Source of the DNA: a virus | Virus record (IMG/VR): IMGVR_UViG_3300001533_003144 | Span: 55,996 to 119,995 of that record | Direction: 5' to 3' (one strand) | DNA: 64,000 nt | Part shown: positions 7,370 through 58,400 of the stretch, piece after piece | Layout of the letters: every line of letters starts with the position of its first letter | How positions within the stretch are numbered: position 1 is the stretch's first letter | Notes under the pieces: model-generated | The model's database searches: none | The model's input: the letters and a program-made list of their open reading frames with translations, nothing else | What the model was told of the DNA's origin: nothing | Made by a program: the position numbers and the translations under genes

Positions 7370-7572
7370 GGTGTTTTATGAAAAAACTAGACAAGTATCT
7401 TTTAAAACTGGCTAAGGAGATCGGTGTTAATGTTGTTGTTAGGTCTGCTAAGTATCCTGATAAACCTATCTTTAGATTAGAGGTAAGTTCCGATCTTTTA
7501 ACTCAGTATAATAGGCAGTGTGATGTTTACCGGTTTTGTAAAAAACACGGGATAAAGATTTTGAATGATTGA
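7366..7572 (+). CDS. Hypothetical protein
   Basis: GAGG RBS before ATG 7378; packed after helicase. Confidence 0.5.
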   Translation: MRCFMKKLDKYLLKLAKEIGVNVVVRSAKYPDKPIFRLEVSSDLLTQYNRQCDVYRFCKKHGIKILND

Positions 7573-7660
7573 GATAAGCCTATGATTAGATTTGAAAGCC
7601 TTGTGGTAAAGGAGTTTCCCGTAAAGGGGTTTACGCTTGATATAAAATATGGGGTATTAA

Positions 7661-7840
7661 ATGAAAAAAGCTTTAATGACACTGACTATGATAGATGCCT
7701 ACAATCAGATACACGATATGTTTGATACAGGTAAAGGTTGGAGGAAACCTCCTGTAGCTAACAAACCTAAGCAGGGTAAGAAAAGACCTGCTGGGAAAGG
7801 TAAAAAGGCAAAAAAATTTGGTAAAAAGAAGAAGAGGTAA
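7661..7840 (+). CDS. 59-aa extremely basic protein (not in ORF track)
   Basis: GGGG RBS; translation ends KPKQGKKRPAGKGKKAKKFGKKKKR*. Confidence 0.6.
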   Translation: MKKALMTLTMIDAYNQIHDMFDTGKGWRKPPVANKPKQGKKRPAGKGKKAKKFGKKKKR

Positions 7841-7845
7841 GTTAA

Positions 7846-8025
7846 ATGCCTTGTAAAAACTGTATGAACATGGGCTGTCCTTTCAGGTGGGTTAGAATCA
7901 CCATTAATGGGGTTCTTAGAGATCCTCAGTTTATAGTGGTAAGGCACGAAATGGCTGGTAGGTTTTTGTTTGGTTGTAAGAAATATCTACCTGATGAAGA
8001 TTTAAGGGAAGGTTTTAATGGGTAG
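7846..8025 (+). CDS. 59-aa Cys-containing protein (not in ORF track)
   Basis: GAGG RBS; MPCKNCMNMGC...GCKKY; fills the gap between neighbours. Confidence 0.5.
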   Translation: MPCKNCMNMGCPFRWVRITINGVLRDPQFIVVRHEMAGRFLFGCKKYLPDEDLREGFNG

Positions 8026-8344
8026 TTTCGAGTATGTATTATCTTCTTTTATTGAGGATTATGCTGAAGTGTTTAGAGAGGAAAAGGAAAGCGTTCGTAC
8101 CTATAGCCAGATGTGGTTATATATTTGCCACTTTACAAAGCTTCTTTATTTTCGGAGCTTTTTTGATAGAGAAACCTTTTCTATTTTTAGTGAGGTTAGA
8201 CTTCCTGTTGCAAGCAAACCTCCTATTAATTTGATAGTGTTTATGTTTATAGAATCCTATAAGGAGCGTGTTAGGGGGATACAAAATATCTCAGTTATTT
8301 CGGATAGAAACATTAGATATTACGGGTTTGATGAAGAAATTTAA
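8018..8344 (+). CDS. Hypothetical protein
   Basis: 108-aa ORF with GGAAGG RBS. Confidence 0.55.
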   Translation: MGSFEYVLSSFIEDYAEVFREEKESVRTYSQMWLYICHFTKLLYFRSFFDRETFSIFSEVRLPVASKPPINLIVFMFIESYKERVRGIQNISVISDRNIRYYGFDEEI

Positions 8345-8380
8345 AATTTCTTTTGACATTGGGGGCTGGTTTGTTATAAT
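8336..8380 (+). promoter_or_regulatory. Strong sigma70 promoter with extended -10, driving the ncRNA
   Basis: TTGACA 8353-8358, 16-nt spacer, TG-T-TATAAT ending 8380; preceded by GAAATT-TAA-AATTTC. Confidence 0.85.
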
Positions 8381-8399
8381 AGTATTAGATCTTTGAAAA

Positions 8400-8835
8400 A
8401 TGAGTAGAGCTGAAAAGGGTTCTTCTGGACGATGATTCCAAGAGTCGTGGATGCCAAGAAAGAGAACATTTGTGAGGTAGGCAGGGTTGAGGGCATAGCT
8501 GTAAAGGCTGGTATTGCTTAATTTAAAATTCCTTAACATAATACAGAAGTCCGGAACTGACGAAAGAAGTAGTCAAGTCCTACGGAACAGCAATAGAACA
8601 GTAATGAAAATCAAGGTAGCACCTTAGTAGGGGGTTTGGTCTGGATACCATCAGCAGTGGTGGAGTAAGATGGGGGGCTTAACGGACGGGAAGTAACTGT
8701 TATTTCTGAACAACAGAATATTGGAGTACCTGAAGCATGAGGAGGATTCCTAGTGAAAAAGTCGGGGAGTGTAAACTTAAAAAGAAAAATCATTCAGACA
8801 AGTAGCGTTGGAGAGTCCTTTTGAGTTCTATTTAT
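8400..8835 (+). ncRNA. Large structured ncRNA (~435 nt), candidate ROOL/GOLLD-class phage RNA
   Basis: 8400-8425 pairs with 8810-8835 at 25 of 26 positions (G-U allowed); nested internal helices and GUAA loops; no + strand ORF of 60 aa or more inside; promoter immediately upstream. Confidence 0.75.
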
Positions 8836-8846
8836 GGAGGTGTGAT

Positions 8847-9626
8847 ATGCGAGTAGTTGTTTCTGTTTGGGCTTCTTATCAAACAAGAGAGCGGTCAGAT
8901 TTTAAGGAAGGGACTGTATCGTTAGTTTTTAACGGTGTTCCTTGTAAGGACCGGATTACTGCTGAGATAGTTTCTCAGACTGCTTATATTGCTGATAACA
9001 ACGGTAATACACCATTGAACTGGGCTTCCTATTATGGAAACATCGAAATAGTAGAACTACTTTTACAAGCAGGAGCAGACCCGAATATTGCCAATAAAAA
9101 CGGCAATACACCGTTGTACGAGGCTTCCTCTAAGGGTCATAAGGAAGTTGTAGAACTACTTTTACAAGCAGGGGCAGACCCGAATATTGCCGATAACAAC
9201 GGCAATACGCCGTTGAACTGGGCTTCCTATTATGGAAACATCGAAATAGTAGAACTACTTTTACAAGCAGGAGCAGACCCGAATATTGCCAATAAAAACG
9301 GCTATACACCGTTGTACTGGGCTTCCTATAATGTACACCACGAGGTTGTAGAATTACTTTTAAAATCAGGAGCAGACCCGAATATTGCCGATAAATACGG
9401 CCAAACACCGTTATACTGGGCTTCCTATAGGGGGCACCGCGAAATAGTAGAACTACTGTTACAAGCAGGAGCAGACCCGAATATTGCCAATAAAAACGGC
9501 AATACACCGTTGTACGAGGCTTCCTCTAAGGGTCATAAGGAAGTTGTAGAATTACTGTTACAAGCAGGGGCAGACCCGAATATTGCCGATAACCTCTTTG
9601 GTTTGGTCTCTTGTATCAGTGAGTAA
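8847..9626 (+). CDS. Ankyrin-repeat protein (six repeats within an unrelated small protein frame)
   Basis: GGAGG RBS 8836-8840; GNTPL..AS..G..E.VELLLQAGADPN x6. Confidence 0.93.
   Translation: MRVVVSVWASYQTRERSDFKEGTVSLVFNGVPCKDRITAEIVSQTAYIADNNGNTPLNWASYYGNIEIVELLLQAGADPNIANKNGNTPLYEASSKGHKEVVELLLQAGADPNIADNNGNTPLNWASYYGNIEIVELLLQAGADPNIANKNGYTPLYWASYNVHHEVVELLLKSGADPNIADKYGQTPLYWASYRGHREIVELLLQAGADPNIANKNGNTPLYEASSKGHKEVVELLLQAGADPNIADNLFGLVSCISE
8988..9593 (+). repeat. Six 99-bp tandem ankyrin-coding repeats (order A-B-A-C-D-B)
   Basis: ATTGC(T/C) at 8988 and 9582 are exactly 594 bp apart; units 1/3 and 2/6 are nearly identical. Confidence 0.97.
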
Positions 9627-16926: not shown

Positions 16927-19287
16927 ATGAGTTACAAGAAACCTCAAGTTATTACCAAAAGAGATAACTTAACCGGGAACAGGGCTTCGGCTGGGGTGTT
17001 TACCAATGTTGGTATTATTGGTGAAGGTTCTGGGGGTGTTTCCTCTGTACCTAAGACGGTTATAAGATCTGCTGTAGGGCTTAGTGATTTTGTTGATCCT
17101 AATATGCGTTCTGCTGAATGCTCATATCTTGGATTCAATTACCTAGAAGGTGTGGATTATGATGTTACTTCCGAAGGTAAGATACTTTGGAAAGCTACTA
17201 AAATATCTAATCCTTACCTGATGAAGGTGCTTGTAAGTGATTCGGGTAGTTTACCTGTCGGGAATTATTACTATGCTGTAACTGCAATTAAAAAGGTTAC
17301 AACAGATGCGTTTGGTGAGTCTCTTCCGTCTAATGTCTTGGGTGCTGTGCTTGGTACAGTAGGTAAGGCTGTCCTGAATTGGTCTGAAGTTGAGCTTGCT
17401 GACGGTTATCGTATTTATCGGGGGACTTCTCCTACAAACCTGACACTCATCAGGGAAATTTCTGGGGGTAATACTACGGTATGGGAAGATACAGGTATTT
17501 ATACCCCTGGAGCTACTTCTCTTCCGGCTTCAAATACAGCATATAAAAGACCTCCTACAAGTGAGGAAGATACTAAAGGGTACTGGTCTGGTGGGGATGC
17601 TTCGGGAAACTTGGCTTCTCTTGAGGCCGTAGCTGATGGTTCTATTAAAATAGATGCGGATAGTCGAGGTGTTGTAGAGGTTACTGGGGTTGGTTTTACC
17701 AGTCTTGTCGATCCTGATCTTAGTGACATTGCAGCACATCTTCAGTCTGTTGCAAGGGAGCAGCTAGGGGATCGTGGTTTTTATATATCAGGGTCGGCTT
17801 CGTTAAATCTGAGTACCCTTGTTGGGGTTACTACAGGTAGATTAAATATTAGGCTTGATGGCGGTGCTTTAGCAGAAACTGGGGATATAGATCTTAGTTC
17901 TGCTGAGACTCTGGGAGATGTTGCCGGTCTTATTCAGGCGGAATTACGGTCGGCTACAGCTACTCAGGTTACTTGTGAGTACGATACTGATCAAGGTGTC
18001 TTTATTATTACTTCCGAGAAAGGGGGTTCTGCTTCTAAAGTTGAGTTTGATGCTCCCTCGACTGGGGTGGATTTGAGATTAAGTCCTTATCTGAACCTTG
18101 CTGGAGGTACGGGTGTTGATGGTAAACCTTATGCAATTGAAATAGAGTATGTGGCGGTTTCTTCCAGTTTTGTTATAACTTCTGCTACTGCCGGGGATAG
18201 TTCTTCTATAGATGTTACTGCTGGGGAGACCGGTACAGATCTTTCTGTTGCAGGTTTGACTGCTTTAGACTTGTCCGCCGGGGGTTCTGGTGTTGTAGGT
18301 GTTACTGGTGAGAAGGTTACTTATGAGGTGGATGCTGCTATAGTCGGTCAGAACTTCTTTGAAGCTGAGACTTTCTTTGATCTTATTTCTCTTGGTATGG
18401 CTCACGGGTTTGATTCTCAACTATATGCTGTTGCTAAGGATATGATGTCTGAGCCTCCTCAAGGTTTTGGTACTCCTATGTTGACAGTTGTAGCTGTTCC
18501 TGAAATGACCCGTTCTTCTGTAGGGGGTGCTTTACAGGAGCTTGGTAAAGTAGATGTTGATATTGTTGTGGCTATTTCAAATGATGTGGACATAGCAAGG
18601 GATATTGTGTCCCACTCAGTTCACTTCAGTAGGGATGATATTAAAAAAGAGCGTGTAGCTATTGTTTCTCTTGATGCTTCTAAGGTGTCTTACAACGATT
18701 TTATTTCTCTGGCAAAAGAGTTTTCAGTACACGGCGATCGTGCTGTTGTTGTGTATGATAACTATACTAATGAGGGCTATGTTTCTCCTCTTCTGGCAGC
18801 AATGCAAGCAGCCCTTCCTGACAGGGCTACCTCTACTTTAACTTCTACTTTTAGCACTAATCTCCCTGTCAGAAAATCAGGTAGAGTGGACGGTAAAGCA
18901 GAGACATATATGCTTAGTCAGGGGGTTCTTGTTATATCTAAAAACGAAGAAAATGTTCTCACCGTTATTGACGACCTTACTTGCGGAGGTCCTTCTTTGG
19001 ATCTTCCTGGTAGGCTGGTTGAGGACTTTCTTAGAAAAACGCTGAGAAGGGCTTGCTCCCCTCTGAAGGGTCTCAAGATCCGTGACAGAATTACTACGGG
19101 TGTAGAAGAGATAGGTAGAGCTACTTTGGATTCTTTTACTTTCTTGGAGCTTATAGATTCTTGGTTGCCTGAGACTCTTGTGGCATCCCCTCATCCTACT
19201 AATCCTGAAGGGGTTGTCTTGAGATTCACCTATGTCAGGGGCAGAACATTGAAACTGATCGAGGTTGCTTATACTGTTATCGGTTAA
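16927..19287 (+). CDS. Contractile tail sheath protein with inserted Fn3-like and repeated beta domains
   Basis: N-terminal Y..P.V and GIIG; C-terminal KERVAIV...GVLVI...VIDDLT...LKLIEV sheath-like core; 786 aa. Confidence 0.8.
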   Translation: MSYKKPQVITKRDNLTGNRASAGVFTNVGIIGEGSGGVSSVPKTVIRSAVGLSDFVDPNMRSAECSYLGFNYLEGVDYDVTSEGKILWKATKISNPYLMKVLVSDSGSLPVGNYYYAVTAIKKVTTDAFGESLPSNVLGAVLGTVGKAVLNWSEVELADGYRIYRGTSPTNLTLIREISGGNTTVWEDTGIYTPGATSLPASNTAYKRPPTSEEDTKGYWSGGDASGNLASLEAVADGSIKIDADSRGVVEVTGVGFTSLVDPDLSDIAAHLQSVAREQLGDRGFYISGSASLNLSTLVGVTTGRLNIRLDGGALAETGDIDLSSAETLGDVAGLIQAELRSATATQVTCEYDTDQGVFIITSEKGGSASKVEFDAPSTGVDLRLSPYLNLAGGTGVDGKPYAIEIEYVAVSSSFVITSATAGDSSSIDVTAGETGTDLSVAGLTALDLSAGGSGVVGVTGEKVTYEVDAAIVGQNFFEAETFFDLISLGMAHGFDSQLYAVAKDMMSEPPQGFGTPMLTVVAVPEMTRSSVGGALQELGKVDVDIVVAISNDVDIARDIVSHSVHFSRDDIKKERVAIVSLDASKVSYNDFISLAKEFSVHGDRAVVVYDNYTNEGYVSPLLAAMQAALPDRATSTLTSTFSTNLPVRKSGRVDGKAETYMLSQGVLVISKNEENVLTVIDDLTCGGPSLDLPGRLVEDFLRKTLRRACSPLKGLKIRDRITTGVEEIGRATLDSFTFLELIDSWLPETLVASPHPTNPEGVVLRFTYVRGRTLKLIEVAYTVIG

Positions 19288-37131: not shown

Positions 37132-37132
37132 T

Positions 37133-37753
37133 ATGAAAGTTATTGAAAATCAGAGCTATGATCTTGAAGAGGTTTTTGGTGTAGAGCTTTCTGATCTATT
37201 AGATGATATAGCTTCTTCAACCGGGATAGCTTTAGAGACAATTGACACTGTTATAATTGAAGATCTTGTCAGTGAAGAAAATAAAGAAGTCGGTTACGAG
37301 TTTAAGATGGGTGATCGTATTGTCTGGGTAGTTGAAGATGGCATGGAAAATGAACTAGCGGTTTCAGATGCTTTGTCTGATCCTATATCTTTTCTTCGTA
37401 GGGCAAGTGATTTTGAGATTAACGCTATGATAGATACTGATGTATTTCAGGAGAGGATGATTGAAGATACTGTAAGAAGCCGGGCAGACCTATCTGAAGA
37501 AAAAGTACAGCAGATTGTAAGTGATTCTGTTGCAGAGTTAGAGGAACTTGGTCCTGTTACCTATATGCGTGATGTCCTGAAACTTACTGGAGATGCTTTT
37601 TATCAGGCAATTTTAGATAACAACTTAATAGATTTAAACGATTTGGCTCAGATTATTGTTACTGAGTATGGTGCAGAAAACTTGCTTGATATAGATAAGG
37701 AAGAACGGTTTCTTTCTTTGGTAGATGATTATGTTTGCTTTTTAGTTTATTAG
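37133..37753 (+). CDS. Acidic protein, paralog 1 of tandem triplet
   Basis: GGGGG RBS; similar to the next two ORFs (LIDLNDLAQIIVTEYG). Confidence 0.65.
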   Translation: MKVIENQSYDLEEVFGVELSDLLDDIASSTGIALETIDTVIIEDLVSEENKEVGYEFKMGDRIVWVVEDGMENELAVSDALSDPISFLRRASDFEINAMIDTDVFQERMIEDTVRSRADLSEEKVQQIVSDSVAELEELGPVTYMRDVLKLTGDAFYQAILDNNLIDLNDLAQIIVTEYGAENLLDIDKEERFLSLVDDYVCFLVY

Positions 37754-55445: not shown

Positions 55446-58400
55446 ATGCCTTTAGATACAAAATTCAATGCAATGATTCCGAGAGATAATAGAGATCTTT
55501 TAGTGGAAGATCTCGAAAATCAGTCAAATGCTATACACAATGCTATTGGAGATCGTCAGGATGATGTTCATCCGGAGTTTGCCGGCACCGTAAAGTCAGA
55601 GGTAGCAGGGGTTGTCTGGGGACTGAAGGTGTCGTATGTTGCCGGTACAGATACTTTGGATATAAGCCCTGGAGTTGTCTTTAACCGGGGACGAAGGGGT
55701 TCTATAGCGACTATTAAATCTATTCCTATGGCTTCGGTGTCTGTAGATGATTTTATTGTAGCTCGGATTTGGTTTGAAGATGTTGATCTCAAAACTAATC
55801 CTGTAACTCATGTTAATGAGCCTGTCTATAGGCTGTACCATTGTGACATAGAAGTTAAGGTTATAGGTGACATAGACGAGGATGATGTGGTTATCGGTAA
55901 GGTTGTAGATATAGACGGGGGTGTGCCTATACTGGGAGATACTGCTTTATGGGAATATGTTTCCGGAGGTAATCATATCCGGTTTATACCTCGTAATAAT
56001 GTAGGCGAAGATATATTTGGCCCTGTTGGTAATAAATATTTTGTGCGGTTCAGTGTATTGTCCGATACCCCTATATCCGTTCAAAAGCTTAAAGATACTT
56101 CGGGACTTGATTTTACTTATCTGAACATACAGCTACAAGGAGACAGTTCCGGGGTAGTTATATCAACTTTACAGCAGATAATTGATGCAGTGAACTCTAC
56201 TCCAGGGTATTTTCGTGCGGAACTGGTATCTGGTTCGGGTTCTTTTGTACCTACATTGCTTCCTACTTTGTATGCCTCTTACAGTCAGTTTTCGGGTGGG
56301 GTTGATTATAGGAATTATTATGAGACAGTGTCAGGCAGCCGGTCGCTTGCGGTAACTGAGCGGTTTAATACTTCGGATCCTTATACAAAACATATTTCGC
56401 AGAAAGGAAGGGGGGTTCCCTCGGACCGTAATCCGCATGGTATGACTCTTGAAGATATGGGCGTGGCTGAGTTGAGTACGGAAGAACATATTAAAAGGGA
56501 ACATTTTTCGGCTTCTACTTTACCTCGGTCAGCTTCTTCTATTTTTTTAAGAACCGAAATTGTTTCAGCCTTTGAACTTAAAATTAATAAAAGTTCAGGG
56601 GTAGATGATGTTGGTTTGATACAGGGGCGTGTTTTAAAGGTGGCTTCTGATCTGATTCTTAATACCCCTTCTTTAGCTAAACAGGAGCTTTATCAGTTCT
56701 TTCTTACCCAGGGAGGGACAATTCAACATAGGATTATTGCGGAATATAAAGAATTTCCAGGGTATCCTGAGATATTGAGCGGTATCCGTACCGTACTATC
56801 TACTGTAGATAAAGACCCTTATTTAGCCGGGGATAAGATGCTGGAACTGGTTGTTTCTGGAGGTGGTACGGTTTTTACTGCAAGGTTAGGTGATTTGGGT
56901 GCTCCTGTTGGTGTTTCAGTAGAGGGGGAGTGTTTGTTAGTAGATGTTTCAGTAGAGGGGGAGTATTTGTTAGTAGATCCTTCCGATAATACTTGGATAC
57001 GGGTTTACCGGGAAAATGAGGCTATGCCTGATGGAGATTATCGTAATACGGTTACTTTTACGCCTTTTATGGAGATTACCGAATTACCTATATCAATGGT
57101 GTTCTGGAAAGGGCATCAGACCGAATGGGGTTATAGTTCCTCACAGCTTTTTAAAGATTTAAGATCGTATGGTTCTTTTTCTGTGAATAATGAAAAATAT
57201 CTGGATCTTGCTAATACGGTTCCTGTAGATTTCCGGGAAACTTCTTTAGGAGGTTTTACTGCTTTTGAGGGATCAAGTCGGGATCTAACGGTAAACCCTT
57301 TTAAGATAAAGTACAGGGGTACCCTTTACAGAAAAACAACTGCAACGGTTTTAACTATCCCTGAAGATTTCGAGGGCTACTTGTGTGCTTCTTTTGACGG
57401 TTTACAGGGGATGTCACTTTCGGTAGTTTCTGAATCCTCTTTTGAGCTAATGCCTGATCGGGTAATACTGGCTAAAGCTGTGTCTGATGCTGTCGAGATT
57501 ACGACAGTGTCGGAAACCTTTTTTACCGGTAGTTATAATCTGTCAGATAAGTTTTACGAGTTCAATATTTCTAAGGAAGAGGATTTCATTTATGCTTTAA
57601 GGACAGTTAAGGCTTTAGAAGGTACTCCTGGTATTGCAGCTTTTGTTTTTAATGTTCGGGAGAATCTTACTATAAACACGAATTCAATTTTTTCGGGTAC
57701 CAATAGCATTTATTCTCCTTTTATTTTAAACGGCCACAATAAGAGACTCAGTTTTACTGGTAGCACGCAGATCAGGATGGATGAATCTGTAATTAAAGAC
57801 TGCTTTATAGATACAGATGCTGCTGTTTTTTATAGTATTGGTGTTGATAGTCATTGTACCTTTCAGGACAGTTTTATTACTGGGACAGTAGCTTTTGGCG
57901 AGTTTTTAGGTAGAGTAGAGTTTTTCAATTGTTATGTGGGTAAATTTAAGGTAGGTGTTCGAGTTGATATGGTTGGAGGTCGATTACTTGATTCTATTGT
58001 TACTGTAAGTGATGCTGCTCAGGTAAATATGTCTAAGGTAGAATTTAGTGCCTCTGTTCCTATGTTATATTGTGAATCTTATGTTCCTCTTATAGATGGT
58101 ACAGATATCAATGCTTTAAATGTATCTTTAATACACTGCAGGGTATTCGGTAATGGTTCTTTAATTAATGTAGATCCGGGGTGTCCTGAAGGGCACATAA
58201 ACCTAAGTCTTATAGATTCCCGAATTAAATTTTCTTCGCCTGTTACCTGTGACCTGTCTGGACATTGGTTGGATGTTAGTGTTCTTAACGGGGCTTTAGG
58301 CAATTGTGTGTTTGTTGGGCGATCAGCTTTACTTTCAGGTTATAGTGGTTTTTTTGCCGTAGAAGGTACTACGCTGTCCGGGATTATTGGGTTCAAGTAT

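Follow-up and report, generated by a model that had tools for sequence, protein, structure and literature searches.

A phage RNA locus laid out much like the start of a bacterial rRNA operon, with a consensus promoter, a boxA-like element and an end-joining helix ahead of an ankyrin-repeat gene

In bacterial ribosomal RNA (rrn) operons, a boxA lying just past the promoter nucleates the Nus antitermination complex, and an essential leader-trailer helix of more than 17 base pairs (bp) carries an RNase III site (PMC10250234). It has been proposed that boxA, tethered to the polymerase, keeps the leader strand in place for pairing with the trailer (PMC10250234). boxA has also been described in the nut sites of lambda (PMC10250234) and in messenger RNA leaders such as that of suhB (PMC5725501), and the B. 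subtilis rrn boxA consensus, AUGAUCUUUGAAA, binds NusB (2026 mBio, PMC13753749). Another group of RNAs, ROOL and GOLLD, is encoded by phages and prophages, often near tRNA islands, with a length of 659 nucleotides (nt) for a ROOL example and of more than 800 nt for GOLLD (PMC12286853). In this study, we describe an element of the IMG/VR virus record IMGVR_UViG_3300001533_003144, a stretch of about 500 bases without genes (8345-8846) that ends at the gene for an ankyrin-repeat protein. The DNA analysed (the window) is the 64,000 nt from base 55996 to base 119995 of this 119,995-base record, the completeness of which is estimated at 65%; unless another locus is named, positions are those of the window. 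The transcription unit of the element appears to be built like the start of a bacterial rrn operon: a promoter, a boxA-like element and a helix joining the ends of the RNA are all present, and its layout can therefore be said to copy that of a bacterial rrn leader. The parts on which this comparison rests are the following.

8353..8380, + strand: sigma-70-type promoter (TTGACA 8353-8358, 16-nt spacer, extended -10 with TG 8372-8373, TATAAT 8375-8380; 12/12 match)
8386..8398, + strand: boxA-like element UAGAUCUUUGAAA, with the core GAUCUUUGAAA at 8388-8398, between promoter and stem
8400..8425, + strand: leader (5') strand of the closing helix, ATGAGTAGAGCTGAAAAGGGTTCTTC; pairing probability (P) 0.94-0.99
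8810..8835, + strand: trailer (3') strand of the closing helix; P 0.94-0.99; duplex energy of the two arms by themselves, -28.7 kcal/mol
8836..8842, + strand: GGAGGTG, the Shine-Dalgarno (SD) sequence of the ankyrin gene; predicted pairing of its GGAGGU (8836-8841) with boxA, P 0.89
8847..9626, + strand: gene for an ankyrin-repeat protein of 259 amino acids (aa), ATG at 8847; Pfam Ank_2, E 8.6e-87

An earlier reading of these letters without database searches (hereafter, the sequence-only reading) had placed a near-consensus sigma70 promoter, TTGACA-N16-TATAAT, upstream of an RNA, and it is present exactly in that form. It is the only promoter without a mismatch in the 120-kb record; two sites with one mismatch fall within long genes, leaving 8353-8380 as the sole site with 0-1 mismatches outside real + strand genes. 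The promoter falls inside an 82-aa open reading frame (ORF) of the minus strand, which has no family match, and an AT-rich stretch lies immediately upstream of it. From this arrangement we infer a transcription start at about 8387-8388. The AT-rich 15-mer just 5' of the -35 box (8338-8352) recurs, with 93% identity, at 8520-8534 inside the RNA.

The boxA-like element follows at once. UAGAUCUUUGAAA agrees with the consensus AUGAUCUUUGAAA at 11 of 13 positions, the 11-nt core being exact, with the reservation that this consensus is that of Bacillus and may not be the host's. TCTTTGAAAA occurs exactly once in the 120-kb record, at this boxA. The core begins 7 nt past the -10 box and would thus lie at or beside the predicted start of transcription; the element ends 1 nt ahead of the A-run through which the 5' arm is reached. 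Moreover, in the partition function of 8387-8846 the boxA bases AUCUUU (8389-8394) are predicted to pair with GGAGGU (8836-8841) of the ankyrin SD sequence, and in the fold predicted from the start site this pairing prolongs the closing helix over a 5-nt bulge. We regard the boxA as independent support for the view that full-length transcription of a long untranslated RNA may be intended here.

The closing helix had been described as a stem of 26 positions with a single G.G mismatch, and this description holds: 25 of the 26 positions of 8400-8425 and 8810-8835 pair, with one G.G and six G-U, and the stem is present in both the minimum free energy fold and the centroid fold. It had further been argued that the pairing favors RNA over DNA structure. 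At the level of DNA, complementarity of the arms reaches only 75% over 24 nt, and the minus strand of the element is no better folded than its shuffles (z +0.47), which makes the pairing a property of the + strand RNA alone. The 3' arm also abuts the ribosome-binding site of the ankyrin gene, as had been noted, since it ends at 8835 and is followed by GGAGGTG at 8836-8842 and by the ATG at 8847. For this one transcript an end-to-end test was set beforehand, in which the first 60 nt of 8387-8846 were paired with the last 60 nt. This gave a duplex of -36.7 kcal/mol. An energy as low as this occurred in 2 of 2000 shuffled versions of the region and in 2 of 1223 other genomic windows of 460 nt, and the end-to-end pairing of this one transcript is thus significant beyond chance. 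The evidence on the scale of the genome is modest. The + strand of the whole record is rich in T and G (T 32.7%, A 28.7%, G 24.0%, C 14.7%), G-U-rich helices are common in the record because of this skew, and findings of long stems therefore need shuffled controls. A scan of the record for helices of at least 25/26 pairs, with G-U allowed and the arms within 700 nt, returned two on the + strand and none on the minus strand. The other helix (G000:C1:29893-30111, + strand) lies outside the window and inside a 354-aa ORF, and is probably due to chance.

The lack of coding capacity in the element supports its description as a non-coding stretch. The longest ORF of its + strand has 37 aa, and TAA, TAG and TGA are present in each of the three + frames, which rules out stop-codon recoding, as no single reassignment would open any frame. 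The ORFs of the element (82, 60 and 40 aa on the minus strand, 37 aa on the + strand) gave no Pfam match above the cut-off and one chance-level match (E 0.037), and a PHROGs scan of three of the four, the 40-aa one excluded, gave no match. It is the largest ORF-free gap of the window; a gap of 603 nt at 37132-37734, which had seemed larger, was rejected as it is actually coding. No terminator-like site was detected between the RNA and the ankyrin gene in a scan of 8381-8846, and both have the same orientation. Purines make up 61.7% of 8400-8835, a content at least as high being found in 61 of 4783 genomic windows, and the G+C content of the element is 0.42 against a genome mean of 0.386; this outlying composition counts against a neutral AT-rich spacer.

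On these grounds we favor, with a probability of about 0.5, the reading that the element is a phage RNA which Nus factors protect, which RNase III trims and which is transcribed in one unit with the ankyrin gene; it would probably be produced and processed in the manner of an rRNA precursor. According to this reading, the host RNA polymerase would start at the consensus promoter, near 8387, and the nascent boxA would recruit NusB/NusE and other Nus factors, so equipping the polymerase to resist Rho and terminators over some 450 untranslated bases. Held by the polymerase, boxA would keep the leader strand (8400-8425) near, and the 26-position helix would form once the trailer strand (8810-8835) emerges, to be lengthened by the pairing of boxA with the ankyrin ribosome-binding site. 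Cleavage of this duplex by RNase III would then free an RNA of approximately 410-436 nt, presumably a stable one, and would unmask the ribosome-binding site of the ankyrin messenger RNA. As for what the released RNA might do, our guess is that it serves as an abundant trans-acting decoy or scaffold for host RNA-handling factors. More tentatively, and with clearly less confidence than in the reading of this one locus, it may be that phages generally dress their own RNAs as pre-rRNA, with a consensus promoter, a host-type boxA and a leader-trailer helix, and in this manner hijack the rrn antitermination and RNA-chaperone complex together with RNase III. The element would then be an orphan case, with a 436-nt purine-rich RNA in the place of 16S and an excision that unmasks the boxA-held ribosome-binding site of an ankyrin host-takeover gene.

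Between the two arms, the following features were predicted or noted.

8426..8809, + strand: purine-rich interior of 384 nt (helix probabilities from the partition function)
8432-8448, + strand: predicted hairpin
8639-8799, + strand: predicted 3' domain, closed by GUCUGGAU/AUUCAGAC
8648-8663, + strand: hairpin of the 3' domain, P 0.95
8704-8718, + strand: hairpin of the 3' domain, P 0.78
8729-8766, + strand: hairpin of the 3' domain, P 0.89-0.96
8767-8778, + strand: hairpin of the 3' domain with a GUAA loop, P 0.87
8753-8824, + strand: possible mini-ORF of 23 codons, GTG to TGA, 7 nt behind AGGAGG (8740-8745); status uncertain

The interior does not convincingly appear to be elaborately folded. 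Seven internal helices had been listed by the sequence-only reading, and they fared unevenly: TTCTG/CAGAA (P 0.78) and AGT-GTAA-ACT (P 0.87) were recovered and AAGGT/ACCTT weakly so (P 0.61, 3 bp), but ATGATT is predicted to pair locally with GAGTCGT instead (P 0.91), GTTGAGGG has a competing partner, and both GTCCG/CGGAC and CCTAC/GTAGG remain below P 0.5. The folding energy, which had been put forward as a check, was not clearly better than that of shuffled sequences, neither over the span of that reading (z -1.53, 5 of 100 shuffles as good) nor over the whole transcript (z -1.13, 12 of 100). The idea of an ornate structure did not hold up either, with z +0.57 for the 5' part of the interior (8426-8638; 138 of 200 shuffles as good) and z -2.04 for the 3' domain (8636-8802; 5 of 200), against z -4.6 for an RNA of similar layout in Bxz1-type phages. 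No internal repeats of 8 nt or more were found in the RNA. Other ideas on the RNA were considered and dropped: a sponge for GGA (CsrA-type) motifs, with 14 observed and 13.4 expected; a sponge of SD-like GGAG motifs, of which there are 6, a number reached by 524 of 2000 shuffles; and a patchwork of the phage's own (ankyrin) genes, for which only chance 11-13-mers were found. The mini-ORF at 8753-8824, the stop codon of which falls within the 3' arm, 22 nt ahead of the ankyrin ATG, may encode a leader peptide or be there by chance; the AGGA of its putative SD sequence is predicted to be paired (P 0.89).

The element could not be assigned to a described family of RNAs. Rfam 15 gave no match at the gathering threshold in the 64-kb window, and a relaxed search (E<=10) over 8250-8900 gave just two unrelated matches at chance level. 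With ARAGORN, no tRNA or tmRNA gene was found in the window or in the whole 120-kb record. Membership in ROOL, GOLLD, tmRNA, RNase P or group I introns, which the sequence-only reading had proposed to check against Rfam, is thus not supported by these searches, and neither is an identity as a group II intron, 6S or SRP RNA. The small-subunit model RF00177 has no match in the record. Short motifs that seemed to resemble the conserved regions of RNase P stand in the wrong order and position, and the likeness was rejected.

Searches for relatives were equally negative. A blastn search with 8336-8847 had no match among GenBank phages, and a search of the record itself found the element only once, at its own place. 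The neighboring DnaB-type helicase, used as a single sequence and as an alignment of nine proteins, has no relative in IMG/VR, and the 266-aa downstream protein has no match there. Relatives of the helicase at 82-45% identity (P0002-P0009) are present in the protein collection, and the helicase alignment found three loci in JGI metagenomes; in these three, the contig ends too soon or other genes lie downstream, and the RNA is not present. In species genomes the helicase has a single match, at 24% identity. A 17-nt stretch over boxA and the 5' arm occurs at six IMG/VR loci, all without resemblance to the RNA by eye. Two DNA runs carry the region, and their contigs are identical to the window over 7400-8980 (0 differences), so that no population variants are offered. 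The runs belong to two coded studies, yet the same 5369-nt contig is present in both at nearly equal depth; they may be one data set, perhaps the source data, filed twice.

Two kinds of RNA in other phages share parts of the plan of the element. The first is a Bxz1-type RNA of about 300-430 nt, found in cluster C mycobacteriophages and in an IMG/VR relative (L006 1190-1617, L007 286-716, L014 9567-9872), with the z of -4.6 mentioned above for the gap at L006 1190-1617. It is nearly identical in 202 of 203 matching phage records, the remaining one being a diverged relative, and when the IMG/VR relative is included 26 of 90 predicted pairs show compensatory changes, some of these pairs belonging to the stem, of about 25 bp, that closes the RNA. 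By this covariation, the Bxz1-type RNA is to be taken as genuine, and its plan is that of the element. It occupies a gap without genes in a large phage, its ends are joined by this stem, its interior is rich in purines, and the SD sequence of the next gene comes directly after the 3' arm; a few short motifs are also collinear with those of the element. The common motifs of 9 and 10 bases are, by estimate, within chance for such lengths. The Bxz1-type RNA differs in being strongly structured and covarying, and, by eye, in having its shared AACAG motif paired through CAG beside the 3' arm, a partner that the element lacks. An nhmmer profile of four Bxz1-type sequences found nothing in 8345-8846, its best match in the 120-kb record lying elsewhere (E 29). 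A motif pattern from the three-way alignment matched nine IMG/VR loci: two are Bxz1-like, one is a shorter member of the family, and the remaining six are by eye chance matches, so that the family members thus obtained are all from actinophages. As judged by these searches, the element is no detectable member of the Bxz1-type family.

The second kind was found through the promoter-boxA cassette itself. In IMG/VR, the pattern TATAAT-N4-12-GATCTTTGAAA occurs at no fewer than 114 loci, with a perfect TTGACA at 16 nt in seven among the matches listed. The stricter pattern TTGACA-N16-18-TATAAT-N5-10-GATCTTTGAAA returned exactly those seven contigs, and all seven cassettes head a structured RNA in a tRNA array.

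L031 4960-5366 (- strand), L033 2126-2500 (+ strand), L114 9255-9600 (+ strand), also L050, L078, L079 and L098: tRNA-array RNA of about 330-400 nt

These RNAs lie on large IMG/VR phage fragments and fall into three sequence types (L031=L050; L033=L078=L079=L098; L114), across which 27 of 55 predicted pairs show compensatory changes; they have no Rfam match. The 5' strand of their closing helix starts a few bases past boxA. The long-range pairing of two of their conserved segments bears a possible resemblance to P4 of RNase P. In all seven cassettes the spacer measures 16 nt and GATCTTTGAAA follows after a gap of 7-8 nt; TGA precedes TATAAT in six of them, with CGA in L114. The cassette of the element has the same geometry, with its 16-nt spacer, TG and 7-nt gap. 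The body of the tRNA-array RNA is unrelated to the element (nhmmer best E 15 over 23 nt in the element region), and it lies among tRNA genes, in contrast to the element, the record of which has no tRNA in 120 kb. When the RNA of the element and its helicase were searched for in five cassette-bearing records, only A-rich matches of 19-25 nt were found, and no helicase.

Several observations weigh against the reading of the element as a Nus-protected, RNase III-trimmed RNA. No homolog was found, and therefore no base pair is supported by covariation. The boxA match is to the Bacillus consensus and not to that of the real host. The closing helix includes the six G-U pairs and the G.G, and dinucleotide-shuffled genomes give helices of at least 25/26 in 2 of 8 trials (5 windows), since G-U pairs come at little cost when a strand is rich in G and T. 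In addition, there are the unremarkable folding of the whole transcript, of the span read earlier and of the 5' interior, and the mini-ORF with a good SD sequence inside the RNA. These points are best seen beside the readings that would make use of them. If the element had no dedicated RNA function, being plain intergenic DNA or what is left of a lost gene, with a strong promoter for the ankyrin gene, the helix and boxA would have arisen by chance; the helices of the shuffled genomes, the second 25/26 helix inside an ORF elsewhere in the record, the plain folding energy and the lack of relatives speak for this. However, chance would have had to bring together, within 50 nt and in the correct order, three independent rare features: the 12/12 promoter and the exact boxA core, each the only one in the record, and a helix that ends at boxA and at the SD sequence. 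Just 2 of 2000 shuffles reach the end-to-end duplex, and the gap is the largest without ORFs in the window. We hold this explanation to be improbable. We think it about as improbable that the element is, as the sequence-only reading had supposed, an ornate non-coding RNA, whether a compact member of the ROOL and GOLLD kind or a new class like it, and that its tertiary fold is elaborate. An RNA of about 436 nt closed by a helix, with a 3' domain somewhat better folded than shuffles and a GUAA-loop hairpin in it, is what such a class might look like, and phages do carry such RNAs (PMC12286853). Against it stand the absence of Rfam membership, with only the two chance-level matches at E<=10, the lack of a tRNA island in the 120-kb record when ROOL and GOLLD are often near one, a length well below the 659 nt and >800 nt of the described examples, the weak z of the whole RNA with a 5' half of no excess stability, and the lack of homologs and hence of covariation.

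The alternative that deserves the closest attention is that the element serves the ankyrin gene or early operon solely as a long 5' leader with a regulatory role, similar to the lambda pL-nutL-N arrangement, in which boxA would act in Nus-dependent antitermination for the co-oriented genes downstream, the helix and the boxA-SD pairing would set the translation of the ankyrin gene, and the interior would be a spacer, possibly with a leader peptide, without a stable RNA being formed. It would account for the lack of a terminator between the RNA and the ankyrin gene, for genes that are all co-oriented, for the sole consensus promoter of 120 kb, for the pairing of boxA with the SD sequence, for the thermodynamically unexceptional interior and for a mini-ORF that stops 22 nt ahead of the ankyrin ATG; moreover, boxA is known from messenger RNA leaders (suhB, PMC5725501) and from lambda nut (PMC10250234). 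Yet an untranslated leader of 450 nt with a 26-position helix goes far beyond the needs of translational control, the same promoter-boxA cassette heads stable RNAs in 7 of 7 other phage cases, and the purine-rich composition and above-average G+C speak against a neutral spacer. Neither a boxB-like element nor an N-like protein was seen, no search aimed at them having been made. We consider a leader of this kind unlikely, and continue to favor the trimmed, Nus-protected RNA.

With regard to the setting of the element, a crude ORF map has almost all long ORFs on the + strand. A 108-aa ORF without family match lies upstream of the element, and the gene for the DnaB-type helicase terminates 1 kb upstream of it. 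GGAGG precedes 36 of 119 long ORFs, and SD use is thus common; this would speak against a host among the Bacteroidota. The 786-aa protein encoded at 16927-19287 has no tblastn match among 50,697 GenBank phage records, and the best match of the helicase in GenBank phages, from a Microbacterium phage, has 30.7% identity. Judged by such protein comparisons, the phage is very distant from cultured phages.

If the favored reading is true, boxA together with a leader-trailer helix would not be confined to rRNA and lambdoid nut sites, but would act as a portable packaging signal that gives unrelated phage RNAs rRNA-grade transcription, resistance to Rho, assisted folding and trimming by RNase III. 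The sequence rule of a promoter, a host-type boxA and an end-to-end helix would find stable RNAs of phages without homologs or an Rfam model, and the type of boxA could hint at the host of uncultured phages. A boxA that pairs with the ribosome-binding site ahead of the following gene would couple RNA processing to translation in a new way. A full-text literature search, supplements and subscription journals being outside its scope, returned no description of phage RNA genes with boxA and a leader-trailer helix. What we propose is the known boxA logic of rrn and nut, applied here to an unrelated phage RNA that is represented by a single orphan sequence.

It remains to set the element beside the systems with which we began. 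To ROOL and GOLLD it is alike in being a large phage-encoded non-coding RNA without an assigned role, and it differs in its shorter length of 436 nt, in the absence of an Rfam match and of any tRNA in 120 kb, and in the weak evidence for an elaborate fold. The lambda N leader contains an RNase III-sensitive site. With pL-nutL-N the element has in common the order of promoter, boxA, structured leader and first gene, the role of boxA and nut being as described for lambda (PMC10250234). In contrast, its leader is about twice as long and closed end to end, and boxB or an N-like protein was not seen, no search aimed at either having been made. From the rrn leader the element differs in several respects. 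The RNA enclosed in the element is not rRNA, given no RF00177 match in the record and no Rfam match in the window; boxB and boxC were not identified at the element, no search aimed at boxB having been made; the helix begins 1 nt after the A-run of boxA, against 18-19 nt; and the trailer runs directly into a protein gene whose SD sequence pairs with boxA. On the other hand, the boxA, with an 11-nt core identical to that of B. subtilis, comes directly behind a strong promoter, the order of boxA, leader strand, enclosed RNA and trailer strand is the same, the trailer strand lies about 385 nt downstream of the leader strand, and the helix of 26 positions is above the >17 bp required in E. coli. 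As read from the DNA, then, the boxA after the promoter and the long flanking helix of an rrn-type leader are both found here around a content other than rRNA, and by analogy the element would act like an rrn leader without being one.

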